A DNA stretch of 33,902 bases from a virus (lineage: Duplodnaviria > Heunggongvirae > Uroviricota > Caudoviricetes): the IMG/VR virus record IMGVR_UViG_2778261509_000015; one strand, given 5' to 3'. Position 1 is the stretch's first letter, and each line of letters starts with the position of its first letter. The position numbers were made by a program, and so were the translations under genes. The notes under the pieces were generated by a model. The model had not been told where the DNA came from, made no database searches, and was given only the letters and a program-made list of their open reading frames with translations. This document shows positions 23,335-26,256 of this stretch, piece by piece.

Positions 23335-23724
23335 TCAGGCAGCTGCACCCGCCGTTTTCTCGTACTTACTGATAGTGATCTCGACCTTCCCTTCCGGGAT
23401 AACCGGTCCCCACTCCACCAGCATTCTTTTCACCTGACTGTCGTCTTCCCACACACCCGCGTGGGTCAGGGCGTCAAACAGCGCCTTGTTATAGTTGTCC
23501 AGATCGCGGATCCGGTTATCCGGCGGAAACAACACGATCTCCACTGAAGCAGGTGCCGACGTTGGTTTCGGCAGACGACGTAACTGCTCAACTATTGCTG
23601 CACACGCCGCGCTCTGGAATTTGCGCCCCGCCGCGCTTATCAGGCTCTTACCTGCAAACGCCCCTTTGTTGGGGTGTCGCCAGTACGTGTTCACGCAGGG
23701 CGGAAAAGGCAGGATCAGCTTCAT
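23335..23724 (-). CDS. rusA: RusA-family Holliday junction resolvase
   Basis: 129 aa; DLDNYNKALFDALTHAGVWEDDSQV matches the RusA catalytic region. Confidence 0.8.
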   Translation of the reverse strand: MKLILPFPPCVNTYWRHPNKGAFAGKSLISAAGRKFQSAACAAIVEQLRRLPKPTSAPASVEIVLFPPDNRIRDLDNYNKALFDALTHAGVWEDDSQVKRMLVEWGPVIPEGKVEITISKYEKTAGAAA

Positions 23725-24047
23725 ACTTTCAGGCCTCTCTCATGTAACCAGTGGGCTGCACGCAACCTGGCGTTCTCCTCACCGGCAAGCAGTGCGCGGA
23801 TGATACCGACCGCCTCGCTGTCGTCGTCCTTCACCGCGGTATGAAGCGTGATCCCCCGGGCCACGCCACGCTTTATCGTGATGACGCCTTTTTTCTCCAG
23901 TGCGCGAAGATGCTCTACCGCTGCATTCACTGAACGGTATCCCAGCATGGTTGCCACCTCCTGATTGGTTGGCGGGAAGCCACGTTCTTTCTGGTAAGAA
24001 ATCAGCATATCCAGCACCTGCTGCTGGCATTGAGTTAACGTCGTCAT
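23721..24047 (-). CDS. LexA-type winged-helix DNA-binding protein lacking the S24 peptidase domain
   Basis: ATG at 24047 (ATGA overlap with upstream stop) gives MTTLTQCQQQVLDMLISYQKERGFPPTNQEVATMLGYRSVNAAVEHLRALEKKGVI, closely resembling the LexA N-terminal domain; only 108 aa. Confidence 0.6.
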   Translation of the reverse strand: MTTLTQCQQQVLDMLISYQKERGFPPTNQEVATMLGYRSVNAAVEHLRALEKKGVITIKRGVARGITLHTAVKDDDSEAVGIIRALLAGEENARLRAAHWLHERGLKV

Positions 24048-24373
24048 GCCGCCATCTCCCTGACCAGTTTTTCCGCCTGGCGAGTCAGGCACAAAATCAC
24101 CCGGGAATCGTTAGTGCCGACATAGAAATTGCGCACAGGTCTGGTTTCACGAACTGGTTGTGGTTCCGGCTCCTGCGCTCTCTCAGCCAGGCGTGGGAAA
24201 TGTCTGCGTGTATCTCCTTCACAACGGTGAGCCACACGCCCACTCTGACGTAACTTGCTTGCTGACTGCAGAACGTGCTGCCGTGAGTAACCTGCAAAAG
24301 CATCCGCAATGTCTCCGGAAGTACACCCCGGATGGGCTTCAATGAATTTCTGAACTTCATTCAAAAGACTCAT
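24044..24373 (-). CDS. Hypothetical phage protein (possible winged-helix)
   Basis: ATG at 24373 with GGGGGTG upstream; coupled to O-like stop and LexA-like start; no confident homology. Confidence 0.4.
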   Translation of the reverse strand: MSLLNEVQKFIEAHPGCTSGDIADAFAGYSRQHVLQSASKLRQSGRVAHRCEGDTRRHFPRLAERAQEPEPQPVRETRPVRNFYVGTNDSRVILCLTRQAEKLVREMAA

Positions 24374-24375
24374 GA

Positions 24376-25194
24376 TCACCCCCTGAATCCTGCCGGGATC
24401 TGGCTGTAGTCCACGTTGTCGTAACTGGCTTTGAAGTACGGGTCCTCGCGTCTGGCTGCAGATACTGCAGGAACTTCCCAGGATTCTTCGAAATGACGAT
24501 CCGGACCAAAGAACGTGACAGCCTGTTTCACAAATTGTGTGCCGCTGTTACCCATCGCAGATACCCAGCCCGCGTAGCGTTTCACACCTTCCAGCATGGT
24601 TTCGGGTTTTACCCCCTCATTCAAACGAGCTTTCCAGGCTTTGAAGGCTGCAGATTTTGAATTGCCACCAGCACGTTTGGGGTATGCCAGCCATGCCTGC
24701 TCAAACTCCGGAGAGTATTCCGGTCGGTTTGAACGAACTCGCACGGACTCATCAGCAGATGCACCAACAGCTATTGGTTCATTGACTGGTTCTTTGACTG
24801 GTTCAAAAGAGTGACTGGTTCTGGGTGAATCTCCTGCACCACCCCCTGGTGCAACTCCTGCACTACCTGGTGAATTTGCTGCACCAGATAGTGAATTATT
24901 TGCACTACCCCATAGTGAATCTCCTGCACCATCAAGATGAAGGAGATAGATATTACTTGAGTTACCTTTTTCACCTTTCCGGGTGACTTTTTTTACCAGC
25001 CCGGACTCACAAAGGGCCGCAATATGATTCATCACAGAACGTTTGCTAATTTCGCACTGGTCAGCAATATGCTGGTAGCTGGGCCAGCACTCACCCTGAT
25101 CGCTGGCATTATCAGCCAGCTTGATCAGAACCAGTTTTCGCAATGGATTACCCACTCGAATTTTCATCGCTTTAACCATCAGCTCCATACTCAT
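24376..25194 (-). CDS. Replication initiation protein (O-like; N-terminal wHTH, central low-complexity linker)
   Basis: N-terminal LRKLVLIKLADNASDQGECWPSYQHIADQCEISKRSVMNHIAALCESGLV HTH; iteron array inside the gene as in lambda O; ATG at 25194 with GGAGGTG upstream. Confidence 0.65.
   Translation of the reverse strand: MSMELMVKAMKIRVGNPLRKLVLIKLADNASDQGECWPSYQHIADQCEISKRSVMNHIAALCESGLVKKVTRKGEKGNSSNIYLLHLDGAGDSLWGSANNSLSGAANSPGSAGVAPGGGAGDSPRTSHSFEPVKEPVNEPIAVGASADESVRVRSNRPEYSPEFEQAWLAYPKRAGGNSKSAAFKAWKARLNEGVKPETMLEGVKRYAGWVSAMGNSGTQFVKQAVTFFGPDRHFEESWEVPAVSAARREDPYFKASYDNVDYSQIPAGFRG
24771..24975. repeat. Candidate replication origin: two iteron arrays plus AT-rich stretch inside the O-like gene
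   Basis: Four copies of TTGACTGGTTC-like 11-mer (24771..24821) and five copies of a ~20-bp GTGAATCTCCTGCACC-like repeat at ~21-24 bp spacing (24824..24933), then AT-rich 24934..24975. Confidence 0.6.
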
Positions 25195-25427
25195 GCTGCA
25201 CCTCCGAGATGCTTCATGTTTTTTCCGGAGCGAAAGGCTATAAGCGGCATACTGACGCGGTAATTACGGCCCAGCGGTTCACAAATCACCTTCTGGCATT
25301 CACGGTCAACCAGGCTAACACGTAGAACATGCCCTGCAGGCGTGGTGTACCACTGCCCAACTGTAGGAATTGATGTTTTTTTACGCTGAAGCAAACGGCA
25401 AATATTGAGGATCAACGGATTAAGCAT
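25191..25427 (-). CDS. Hypothetical protein (78 aa)
   Basis: ATG with GGAGGG 8 nt upstream; ATGA coupling to O-like start; no homology recognised. Confidence 0.4.
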   Translation of the reverse strand: MLNPLILNICRLLQRKKTSIPTVGQWYTTPAGHVLRVSLVDRECQKVICEPLGRNYRVSMPLIAFRSGKNMKHLGGAA

Positions 25428-26256
25428 GACGATGCCCTCCGCTGATATTCAGGAGACGGTGAATATGAAAATTAGCCTTATCCGCCAGACGAATACGTTC
25501 AGCCTGCAAGTTAAGAAGGGTTTCTACCAAAACCTGATGCGCCTGCGGATCCGAAAGAGTTACCTTGCGCAGAGCACGTAGTGCAGTTGTTACATAACTG
25601 AGTTTATGTAAGTCTTCATCATTCAGACGAGTGAGGGCTGGGACAGTAGCCATGATGGCAGCCTCCTTGATCGGTGAAATACTTCCACCACCGGAAACGC
25701 CAATTTCGCTGGTGGTGAACTGAACGGGGTTGGCGTAACCGGTGATCAAGGAAACCGGCGCATCTTTCGATGCCCCCGCCCAGCCCACCATAACTTTGAT
25801 GTGAGCAAATGCGGACGATAAAAAAGACGCTGGCGCGTCATATATCGCCTTGATCAATTCCAGGACGCCAATCCCGGCACCCGCTTTATAAGGTGCCTGA
25901 ACAGTGTAACGTCCCGGAATGGCAGAATCAATGTGCTGGTGGTCCTTCACACTCAACAAAATCACGCCTGAATTTCCACAAAGGACTAAAGCACTCATGC
26001 GGGTAGTCTTTGCGAAGATAGATAACGCGCTGTGTTTCTGGCTCCCAACGAATAACATGGACATAAAGCCCTCTTCCATCACGAAACCAGCGGTTAAGTT
26101 CCTGCACAACTCGCCCCCCACAGTCAGGTAAAGTTCTCTGTGGTTACTTACAGCCAGGTGATTTGGTAATCTGCATTCATGCCGTAACAACAGGTGTTCA
26201 GCGACGCTGACCACCAGCTGTTGCGACAAACGGTTATTTGCCGTTAAACTGTTCAT
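25420..26256 (-). CDS. Hypothetical phage protein (278 aa), function unknown
   Basis: Long ORF, ATG with GGAGAA upstream, ATGA coupling to upstream gene; size and position resemble Rac ydaU-like genes, but no sequence recall. Confidence 0.5.
   Translation of the reverse strand: MNSLTANNRLSQQLVVSVAEHLLLRHECRLPNHLAVSNHRELYLTVGGELCRNLTAGFVMEEGFMSMLFVGSQKHSALSIFAKTTRMSALVLCGNSGVILLSVKDHQHIDSAIPGRYTVQAPYKAGAGIGVLELIKAIYDAPASFLSSAFAHIKVMVGWAGASKDAPVSLITGYANPVQFTTSEIGVSGGGSISPIKEAAIMATVPALTRLNDEDLHKLSYVTTALRALRKVTLSDPQAHQVLVETLLNLQAERIRLADKANFHIHRLLNISGGHRHA

Follow-up and report, generated by a model that had tools for sequence, protein, structure and literature searches.

A probable replication origin within the HTH_36 initiator gene of a lambdoid prophage combines variable dyad iterons with a family-invariant sequence block

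Results

The initiator gene and the repeats within it

The DNA analysed here (the window) is the 33,902-nucleotide IMG/VR virus record IMGVR_UViG_2778261509_000015, assigned to the Caudoviricetes, and our subject is a replication initiator gene on its minus strand (24376-25194 in the list of open reading frames (ORFs); 272 amino acids (aa)) of the SfV orf39 / ST64B sb42 / 'Eru6' helix-turn-helix (HTH) protein type. Two classes of DNA repeats lie inside this gene, a series of dyad-symmetric iterons and, directly adjoining, a set of 10-mers, two of which form part of a 37-nt block that is nearly invariant throughout the family; together these elements probably mark a replication origin.

An AlphaFold2 model of the initiator, built on an alignment of 22 relatives (single-sequence prediction reached only pLDDT 39), contains a single winged helix in an N-terminal domain (aa 1-90; 24925-25194, minus strand; pLDDT 80-93) with helices at residues 17-29, 40-47 and 51-64, the last being the recognition helix, and strands at residues 67-73 and 79-85. 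This domain is followed by a predicted disordered linker (aa 91-157; 24724-24924, minus strand; pLDDT <50) which holds both repeat classes, in agreement with an earlier reading made from the letters alone (hereafter the sequence-only reading), and by a C-terminal domain (aa 158-272; 24379-24723, minus strand) which was modelled as helical with moderate confidence and which is delineated as an exchangeable module by PHROG and tblastn matches and by natural chimeras.

The first repeat class comprises five 15-bp dyads of the form GTG(C/A)A-N5-T(G/T)CAC in linker-coding DNA (24825-24929; aa 89-123), where GTGAATCTCCTGCAC-type repeats start on the plus strand at positions 24825, 24849, 24870, 24891 and 24915, that is, at a spacing of 24, 21, 21 and 24 bp or approximately two helical turns. 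Given here as coding strand and counted from the copy closest to the N-domain, they are iteron 1 (24915-24929, GTGCAGGAGATTCAC), iteron 2 (24891-24905, GTGCAAATAATTCAC), iteron 3 (24870-24884, GTGCAGCAAATTCAC), iteron 4 (24849-24863, GTGCAGGAGTTGCAC) and iteron 5 (24825-24839, again GTGCAGGAGATTCAC), the latter ending 3 bp before the first 10-mer of the block. The pattern GTGMANNNNNTKCAC has five matches in the window, all of them at the dyad array, as against 0.34 expected, and none of 100 shuffled sequences reached five; a pattern scan of the 33.9-kb window revealed no other iteron-like array. The sequence-only reading had described five repeats of approximately 20 bp at roughly helical-turn spacing, of which the number stands while the core is 15 bp and the spacing is closer to two turns. 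Its proposal of a tandem-repeat search was followed using Tandem Repeats Finder and a repeat finder, both of which returned the same arrays. In most of the family the spacers between the dyads (L087-L166; window 24840-24914) carry C5T (CCCCCTA) or AG5 (CCAGGGGGTA) tracts, and each dyad may therefore belong to a longer palindrome.

The second class is a 10-mer, TGACTGGTTC on the plus strand, with exact copies starting at 24783, 24795 and 24812 and at no other position of the window. Read on the minus strand as GAACCAGTCA, copy 1 (24812-24821) is translated R-T-S-H, copy 2 (24795-24804) lies 17 bp further on in another frame (E-P-V-K), and copy 3 (24783-24792), 12 bp past copy 2, is a unit of variable copy number. 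A fourth copy (24771-24780, minus strand GAACCAATAG, plus strand CTATTGGTTC) is degenerate and matches at 8 of 10 bases, so that the four tandem 11-mers originally reported are more precisely three exact 10-mers and one imperfect one. Copies 2 to 4 encode EPVK, EPVN and EPIA, and the GAACC with which the fourth copy starts is conserved family-wide (block positions 31-35).

The dyads are conserved as DNA sites and vary with the recognition helix

Six phage homologues were fetched, from ST64B, Aeromonas AsXd-1, Vibrio D67, Stx2a_F403, Stenotrophomonas BUCT708 and Klebsiella ST15-VIM1phi2.1, and the alignment of their N-domains was used to retrieve further loci. These comprised 80 IMG/VR loci, with N-domains all essentially identical to that of the window, and 80 loci from species-representative genomes with 68-86% amino-acid identity, the latter representing Pseudomonas, Enterobacter, Rahnella, Xenorhabdus, Providencia, Proteus, Erwinia, Aeromonas, Shewanella, Parashewanella, Marinomonas, Aliivibrio, Avibacterium, Zymobacter and Microbulbifer, as well as one Cardiobacteriaceae genome; all hosts in the sample are Gammaproteobacteria.

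Every sampled homologue contains 3-6 repeats at the equivalent place, mostly the 15-bp dyad, and among 72 homologous genes neighbouring dyads are spaced by 21 bp (83 times), 22 bp (41 times), 23 bp (48 times) or 24 bp (74 times). In 52 of these 72 genes the dyads do not all share one frame, with identical dyad DNA being translated as GAGDS or SAGAAP in one copy and as VQQIHQ or VQEIHQ in another, and such mixed frames exclude a purely peptide-level origin of the dyads. The array of iterons in linker-coding DNA that the sequence-only reading took for an iteron-type origin within the initiator gene is thus conserved in homologues. Near-identical E. coli and Shigella proteins of 242-302 aa differ in length chiefly because of their iteron number, which goes from 1 up to at least 8. 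The initiator gene of phage cdtI carries 66 extra bases.

A more general form of the peptide argument would make both repeat classes a by-product of a low-complexity linker, rich in Gly, Ala and Ser and with EPV repeats, and deny them any function as DNA. The window taken alone gives this explanation some purchase, as its five dyads share one frame and encode GAGDS-like pentapeptides, copies 2-4 of the 10-mer encode the similar EPVK, EPVN and EPIA, and the linker is predicted to be disordered. We nevertheless consider it very improbable, given that dyads of homologues are spaced by 22 or 23 bp and occupy mixed frames, that 10-mer copies 1 and 2 differ in frame both in the window and family-wide, and that silent sites are fixed while amino acids change (see below). 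Mere amino-acid repeat coding, which the sequence-only reading had named as the outcome that would speak against it, was therefore not what the homologues revealed: their DNA repeats lie in different frames and their silent sites are conserved. Separately, the five window iterons proved not to be invariant at third codon positions.

The dyad half-site varies with the residue that precedes the invariant His of the recognition helix. Helices of the type ..(M/I/V)-(N/S/T/A..)-H-I/V pair with the half-sites GTGCA or GTGAA (several hundred half-sites), and those of the type ..M-R-H pair with GTGAC or GTGAT in seven genes of the 80-locus genome set, in the contexts SKRSVMRHI and D(R/K)RTAMRHI. Two further M-R contexts were found in mEp013 (..TAMRAV..), with dyads GTGTC/GTGAC...GTCAC, and in the distant Vibrio phage D79 (..FMRKI..), with dyads GTGAC...GTCAC. 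For helices of the S(T/A)V(R/K)xH type GTG-N9-CAC dyads are absent and the repeats are instead TGTAGGCCCAGAAAGCACA, (C)TATGCC-N7-9-GCAYA or GGGGCAGGAGCTGCCC. This correlative pattern is the one that would be expected if the helix reads the half-site, and the comparison shows the dyads to be DNA-level sites, most likely iterons bound by the initiator.

Binding of the initiator to the dyads might instead serve autoregulation or copy control, the dyads being operators and the actual origin residing elsewhere in the phage. Dyad-symmetric sites are typical of operators and plasmid Rep dimers repress at inverted repeats, yet the window dyads lie 265-370 nt into the coding region, no sigma-70-like promoter was matched in 24300-25500, and no second iteron-like array is present in the window; moreover, 3-6 copies at two-turn spacing inside an initiator gene is the pattern of the lambda, P22 and L origins. 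An operator function is for these reasons decidedly improbable as the explanation of the array.

A 37-nt block adjoining the dyads is invariant down to its silent sites

Per-position conservation in 58 non-redundant genes delimits a family-invariant block of 37 nt (24788-24824, minus strand, CCAGAACCAGTCACTCTTTTGAACCAGTCAAAGAACC) with the nearly invariant consensus CCAGAAYCAGTCACTCTYYTGAAYCAGTCAwwGAACC. The block begins immediately after the last dyad, the junction TGCAC-CCA-GAACC being fixed family-wide, and conservation collapses beyond it; block positions 29-35 are conserved though they lie outside the search pattern. The segment C AGA ACC AGT CAC TCT TTT GAA CCA GTC A is identical, silent sites included, in four of the first six homologues, the flanking coding DNA of which has diverged to approximately 50-70% amino-acid identity. 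When up to four mismatches are allowed, a 29-nt core is found in 72 of 85 genes, and when up to five are allowed, in 75 of 86 (the window has none), always 340-450 nt into the gene.

The two-part layout of dyads and block with the same junction is found in Enterobacterales, Pseudomonas, Vibrionaceae, Shewanella, Aeromonas, Marinomonas, Pasteurellaceae and others. This bears on the suggestion, made from the window alone, that two iteron classes are unusual and may indicate a hybrid origin. Although two repeat classes do stand side by side and lambdoid replication genes are mosaic, a fusion of the origins of two phages is extremely improbable, since the same arrangement and junction recur in 75 of 86 sampled homologues and the co-occurrence of both classes is the standard architecture of the family.

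Codon use was compared in 57 genes that share less than 90% DNA identity. Silent sites in the N-domain part are saturated, each conserved residue being encoded by 4-6 synonymous codons with a top-codon share of 0.2-0.7, for example Ser39 (six codons, top share 0.21) and Arg72 (six codons, top share 0.19). In the block, Arg is AGA in 55/55 cases, Thr ACC in 38/38, Ser AGT in 55/55, His CAC in 51/51, Ser TCT in 56/56, Phe TTT in 28/28 and Glu GAA in 56/56, with CCA for Pro and GTC for Val reaching shares of 0.94 and 0.98, respectively. The changes that do occur in the block are non-synonymous (ACC to ATC, CAC to AAC, CCA to TCA, TTT to CTT or TTA) and fall at the same few DNA positions.

It is conceivable that the block is kept for its peptide, RTSHSFEPV(N/K)EP, as a linear motif docking a host replication protein, with DNA conservation being secondary; the peptide is indeed well conserved and a disordered linker is the usual place of docking motifs. 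Such a motif cannot fix six-fold codons (AGA, AGT and TCT at 100%) across Pseudomonas, Vibrio, Shewanella and enterobacterial hosts, which differ strongly in codon usage, nor does it sit well with tolerated changes that alter the amino acid (T to I, H to N, P to S, F to L) or with Shewanella loci L153, L154 and L156, in which the second 10-mer is 15 bp away and hence in another frame. We regard docking as an improbable cause of the conservation. Nor is an overlapping gene the cause of the silent-site conservation, as the two other frames open across the block extend over 13-396 and 3-325 codons in 69 loci and contain no conserved ORF.

The two 10-mers of the block, GAAYCAGTCA, lie 17 bp apart and are consequently read in different frames (R-T-S-H and E-P-V). 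The block is usually followed by further 10-mers or a partial GAACC at 12-bp spacing; variant spacings of 15, 16 or 12+14 bp between 10-mers occur in homologues, and the total number of 10-mers ranges from 2 to 5 among near-identical genes through gain or loss of 12-nt GAACCAGTCAAx units. Carriers of the substitution W37F retain GAACCAGTCA. In the initiator gene of Shewanella profunda (L148:1501-2290) both 10-mers are changed alike to GAATCTATCA and are 15 bp apart, which looks like a concerted change.

The block accompanies the N-domain and iterons irrespective of the C-terminal module

A scan of IMG/VR viral contigs with an exact 27-mer yielded at least 120 loci, all within ORFs, and the N-domain signature is present in 116 of the 120 loci listed, the other four being cut off or disrupted. 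Among sampled genes the block is joined to at least eight unrelated C-terminal domains. The next gene is likewise diverse, being of the lambda-P type (L111, L157, L006), the DnaC/IstB type (L108, L104) or the DnaB type (L150, L005), a Toprim primase (L004), of no recognised kind, or, as in the window, no helicase or loader gene at all. In view of the N-domain carried by 116 of the 120 loci listed, of these varied C-domains and next genes, and of the absence of the block from distant initiators, the sequence comparison indicates that the block is tied to the cassette of N-domain and iterons and is independent of the C-domain and of the mode of helicase recruitment.

The modular nature of the initiator is also apparent from tblastn searches of phage records, where the match is confined to the N-terminal 90-140 residues in some phages and to the C-terminal 120 in others. 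Three chimeric initiators, P0061, P0066 and P0072, join an F403/Eru5-type or Klebsiella ST15-type N-domain with its iterons to a window-type C-domain, and their crossovers map to the 10-mer block (window 24788-24824). In Rahnella woolbedingensis (L104:1501-3194) a window-like C-domain (EFEKAWKVYPAREGSNPK...) is followed by a DnaC/IstB-type loader gene. The gene after the Stx2a_F403 initiator (L004:3388-5540), a Toprim primase-like 'replication protein', has LAGLIDADG_3 and Hom_end_hint matches, which suggests an intein or homing-endonuclease insertion.

The block thereby marks a joint for the exchange of N- and C-terminal initiator modules, and it might be asked whether it is maintained solely as a shared recombination linker for swapping C-terminal, helicase-recruiting modules rather than as a replication element. 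It borders exactly on the module of N-domain and iterons on one side and on at least eight unrelated C-terminal modules on the other, and the chimeras cross over at it. Selection for future recombination is weak, though, and leaves the 10-mer spacing, the 3-bp phasing to the dyads, the variation in 12-nt units and the concerted change in S. profunda unexplained; crossovers at the sole shared sequence are in any case expected whatever its primary function. The recombination joint appears real as a consequence and unlikely as the selective cause, and as a full account of the block it is improbable.

The 10-mers could alternatively be sites for a host factor common to Gammaproteobacteria and not for the initiator. 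They are invariant while the recognition helix varies, all sampled hosts belong to that class, and no residue of the initiator was found to track the rare 10-mer variants. To our knowledge the 10-mers resemble no DnaA box, IHF site or GATC site; there is no promoter-like match at them, the block occurs only in genes with this N-domain (116 of the 120 listed), and it is absent from initiators of the lambda-O, Bcep22 and Vibrio D79 types in the same hosts. This restriction to the N-domain cassette argues for a partner encoded by the cassette, and a host factor is accordingly an unlikely though not negligible reader of the 10-mers.

Base composition and other signals in the region

The AT-rich stretch which the sequence-only reading placed beyond the repeats (24935-24975, GC 0.33-0.40) is only approximately 60-67% AT and hence weak; in the direction of the gene it lies upstream of the iterons, on the N-terminal side, and it encodes the folded domain's wing (aa 74-87, pLDDT ~70-80) and not the linker. 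A role in the origin is doubtful. No strong conserved AT-rich tract was found across the family, where two modest bumps of about +0.1 occur; at this stretch the family-wide AT excess is +0.08 to +0.10, much like that of the block. In some AT-rich hosts (S1249, mEp013, L136) the 10-mers are followed by an A-rich tract, giving the lambda order of iterons, 10-mers and A-rich tract.

Other candidate signals were examined and rejected. A single terminator-like hairpin with a T-run, at 24971-24986 (plus strand) and antisense to the initiator gene, matches the number expected in shuffles (1 found, 1.1 expected) and is probably due to chance. The sole Rfam match is a sub-threshold miRNA model (22 vs 84 bits), and the single-strand fold of 24765-24940 is no better than that of shuffled sequences (z = -0.83).

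Identity, distribution and neighbourhood of the initiator gene

The N-terminus of the initiator matches Pfam HTH_36 (PF13730; 1.8e-11, 44 bits, above cutoff), while a DnaD_N match of the N-domain is below the Pfam threshold (1.9e-05) and the Pfam scan gave no match to Phage_rep_O (PF04492) at E <0.01. The whole protein belongs to PHROG 270, 'replication initiation protein' (1.4e-87), and is thus a member of the HTH_36 winged-helix phage initiators (PHROG 270/8540/391; SfV orf39, ST64B sb42, Eru5/Eru6 HTH proteins), with 5573 relatives at E <=1e-10. Its C-terminal 120 residues match the C-termini of phrog_26426, 1701 and 9327 ('DnaD-like helicase loader' / 'primosomal protein'). No homologue of solved structure was found by sequence, a profile search returned only weak generic winged-helix matches, and Foldseek with the N-domain model found generic winged-helix folds only, including the DnaD N-domain (2v79).

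The gene is 98-99% identical to annotated replication genes of SfV (orf39), mEp460, 2H10, cdtI and Stx2a_WGPS2 (AP012537; 98.3% across the full 819 bp), of which SfV, mEp460, 2H10 and cdtI are viable phages, and it is carried by 897 of 5426 complete E. coli genomes (>=80% coverage). It corresponds to the HTH_36 protein of the Stx-phage 'Eru6' replication region, in which this gene occupies the second position behind an Ash/Rha-type gene upstream of cI (PMC8951638); Eru6 is defined by gene content, with iterons or an origin unmentioned (PMC8951638, PMC8044961). The window gene is located in an early-right operon, preceded by cro, a CII/CP76-type gene, an Ash-family gene and a 78-aa ORF, with cI upstream of the operon and divergently transcribed. 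It is followed by genes for a 111-aa PerC/YfdN-like protein, a 123-aa LexA_DNA_bind-only protein and RusA (23335-24379, minus strand). Neither the ORF list nor Pfam or PHROG searches revealed a helicase or helicase-loader gene, the lambda-P type included, after the initiator in the window, and host DnaB/DnaC are therefore presumably used.

Three circular records of 38-45 kb deposited as 'plasmids' deserve mention: NZ_CP148393.1 and CP077666.1 carry the initiator gene, and NZ_CP118695.1 carries a 72% homologue. They probably represent phage genomes in circularised form, and no evidence was drawn from them. The initiator ORFs of L106 (Pseudomonas bharatica) and L137 (Erwinia tracheiphila), both with gene start 1501, are truncated to 133 and 118 aa, in the case of L106 by what looks like a frameshift within the linker; their dyads and 10-mer block are intact despite this truncation, and they probably belong to decaying prophages.

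Discussion

The comparative evidence makes it likely that the locus represents the vegetative replication origin of a lambdoid prophage located within its initiator gene, with the dyads serving as initiator sites. An intragenic iteron origin in a lambdoid initiator gene is classical and variable iterons are ordinary; the unusual part is a family-frozen, frame-independent element in place of an AT-rich tract. This block could be an unwinding or second-contact element, an assignment which we hold somewhat short of even confidence.

The iterons of lambda are dyad-symmetric. In the lambda ori the iterons and an AT-rich tract lie in the central part of the O gene, the adjacent tract opens, and O binds single-stranded DNA (ssDNA) as well (PMC7466680). 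The window resembles lambda, 933W and P27 in having its probable origin within the initiator gene, in the stretch that codes for the connection between a DNA-binding N-domain and a helicase-recruiting C-domain, and resembles lambda further in its several iterons at approximately two-turn spacing and in the position of the gene in the early-right operon (PMC7466680). As in Stx phages, where four and six iterons have been reported, iteron number varies among relatives (PMC7466680). The lambda-like layout claimed by the sequence-only reading consequently stands as regards the mid-gene position and the dyads at two-turn spacing, but not in other respects: the window initiator is not a Phage_rep_O protein, its iteron sequence is unrelated, its AT-rich stretch is weak and upstream where that of lambda is downstream, its iterons are followed by an invariant 10-mer block and not by a strong AT-rich tract, and no P-type loader gene comes after it. 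Some homologues elsewhere do have a following Phage_lambda_P gene, as lambda does.

Gene 18 of P22 and of phage L contains its own iterons in the coding region, in L six copies of an 11-bp repeat (PMC8022706); these are described as single-class arrays, and unlike in the present family no element common to distantly related initiators is described for them (PMC8022706). A two-part design is known from plasmids, where the RK2 TrfA and F RepE proteins, still bound to the iterons, contact the 13-mers repeated in the unwinding element as ssDNA (PMC4081077), and where the exact sequence of the 13-mers is needed (PMC4081077, PMC10602881). The window shares with RK2 and F the placement of iterons, bound by winged-helix domains in the plasmids and probably so here, beside short direct repeats of constrained sequence. 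It differs in that the plasmid origins are intergenic, their 13-mers AT-rich and their Reps equipped with two winged helices (Rep_3), whereas the element described here is coding, only mildly AT-rich and no more than a candidate ssDNA site, and its initiator is modelled with a single winged helix; judged from this model, membership of the Rep_3 protein family is unlikely. With DnaD the initiator has in common a winged-helix N-domain (weak DnaD_N match) and C-domain PHROG matches to DnaD-like loader or primosomal proteins, but the similarity is marginal and DnaD is no origin-specific binder of iterons.

Several points weigh against our interpretation or restrict its reach. The table of helix-dyad covariation is descriptive and uncorrected for shared ancestry. 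Homologues were retrieved by way of two N-domain peptide patterns, CWPSY and KLVLxKLA, which confines the sample to that subfamily, and the distant winged-helix initiators of Vibrio D79 and Va_PF430-3 have iterons and no block, as does Bcep22, which has another N-domain. The A+T content of the block exceeds that of its surroundings by only about 0.10, so that it is no classical easily melted tract, and an A-rich tract after the block is absent in the window. The recognition helix varies and the block does not, which means that a conserved surface of the N-domain or a host factor must read the block, and no initiator residue was found to co-vary with the rare 10-mer variants, although TAACC variants occur in three genes only. 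Finally, experimental evidence of origin activity or binding for this HTH_36 family was not found in the searchable literature. Nor was any description of an HTH_36-family origin or of the invariant block found there, papers on yfdO/CPS-53 included, many subscription papers lying outside that literature such that an earlier mention is possible; a literature search with the repeat sequence strings returned primers only.

From the arrangement of the elements we infer binding, unwinding and helicase loading to proceed as follows. By analogy with lambda, dimers of the N-domain would bind the five dyads approximately two turns apart and wrap the DNA, thereby forming an O-some-like complex, with the dyads carrying a phage-specific 'address'. 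The block would constitute the activating part of the origin and may be where the duplex is opened by the iteron-bound complex and entered by the helicase. It occupies the position of lambda's AT-rich tract, in a constant phase relative to the last iteron, and is the best candidate for the point of opening and helicase entry. The block may also provide a second sequence-specific contact, double- or single-stranded, for a conserved face of the N-domain, in the manner of plasmid Rep proteins and their 13-mers; its invariance in sequence exceeds what composition alone would need, and recalls the 13-mers of RK2 and F. The exchangeable C-domain would recruit the helicase or loader of the respective phage, presumably host DnaB/DnaC in the present case. 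The two binding specificities envisaged by the sequence-only reading are in this way retained in modified form, one class varying with the recognition helix and the other being invariant across the family.

Genes for this initiator are very common. They occur in E. coli, in the serotype-converting phage SfV, in Eru6 Stx phages and in Pseudomonas, Vibrio, Shewanella, Aeromonas and Pasteurellaceae prophages, and the origin of the HTH_36 initiator family is apparently undescribed. Since control of Stx-phage replication affects toxin output, locating these origins has practical value. The comparison yields a testable model in which the predicted specificity bases of the dyad half-site are set against a single residue of the recognition helix, and it singles out the block as an element of its own on which, although it is coding, constraint at the DNA level is extreme, a clean natural case of a coding sequence with silent sites frozen by a non-coding function. 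More tentatively still than its role in unwinding or contact, the block may serve a very large family of prophage origins as a universal 'activation code', read sequence-specifically by a conserved face of the initiator and probably as melted DNA, with the dyads as address. If this is true, a single gene would contain two separable DNA elements, one for origin specificity and one for firing, and the block would represent a common handle: a generic marker by which these origins could be found and a possible point of attack for cross-phage interference, satellites or defence systems.

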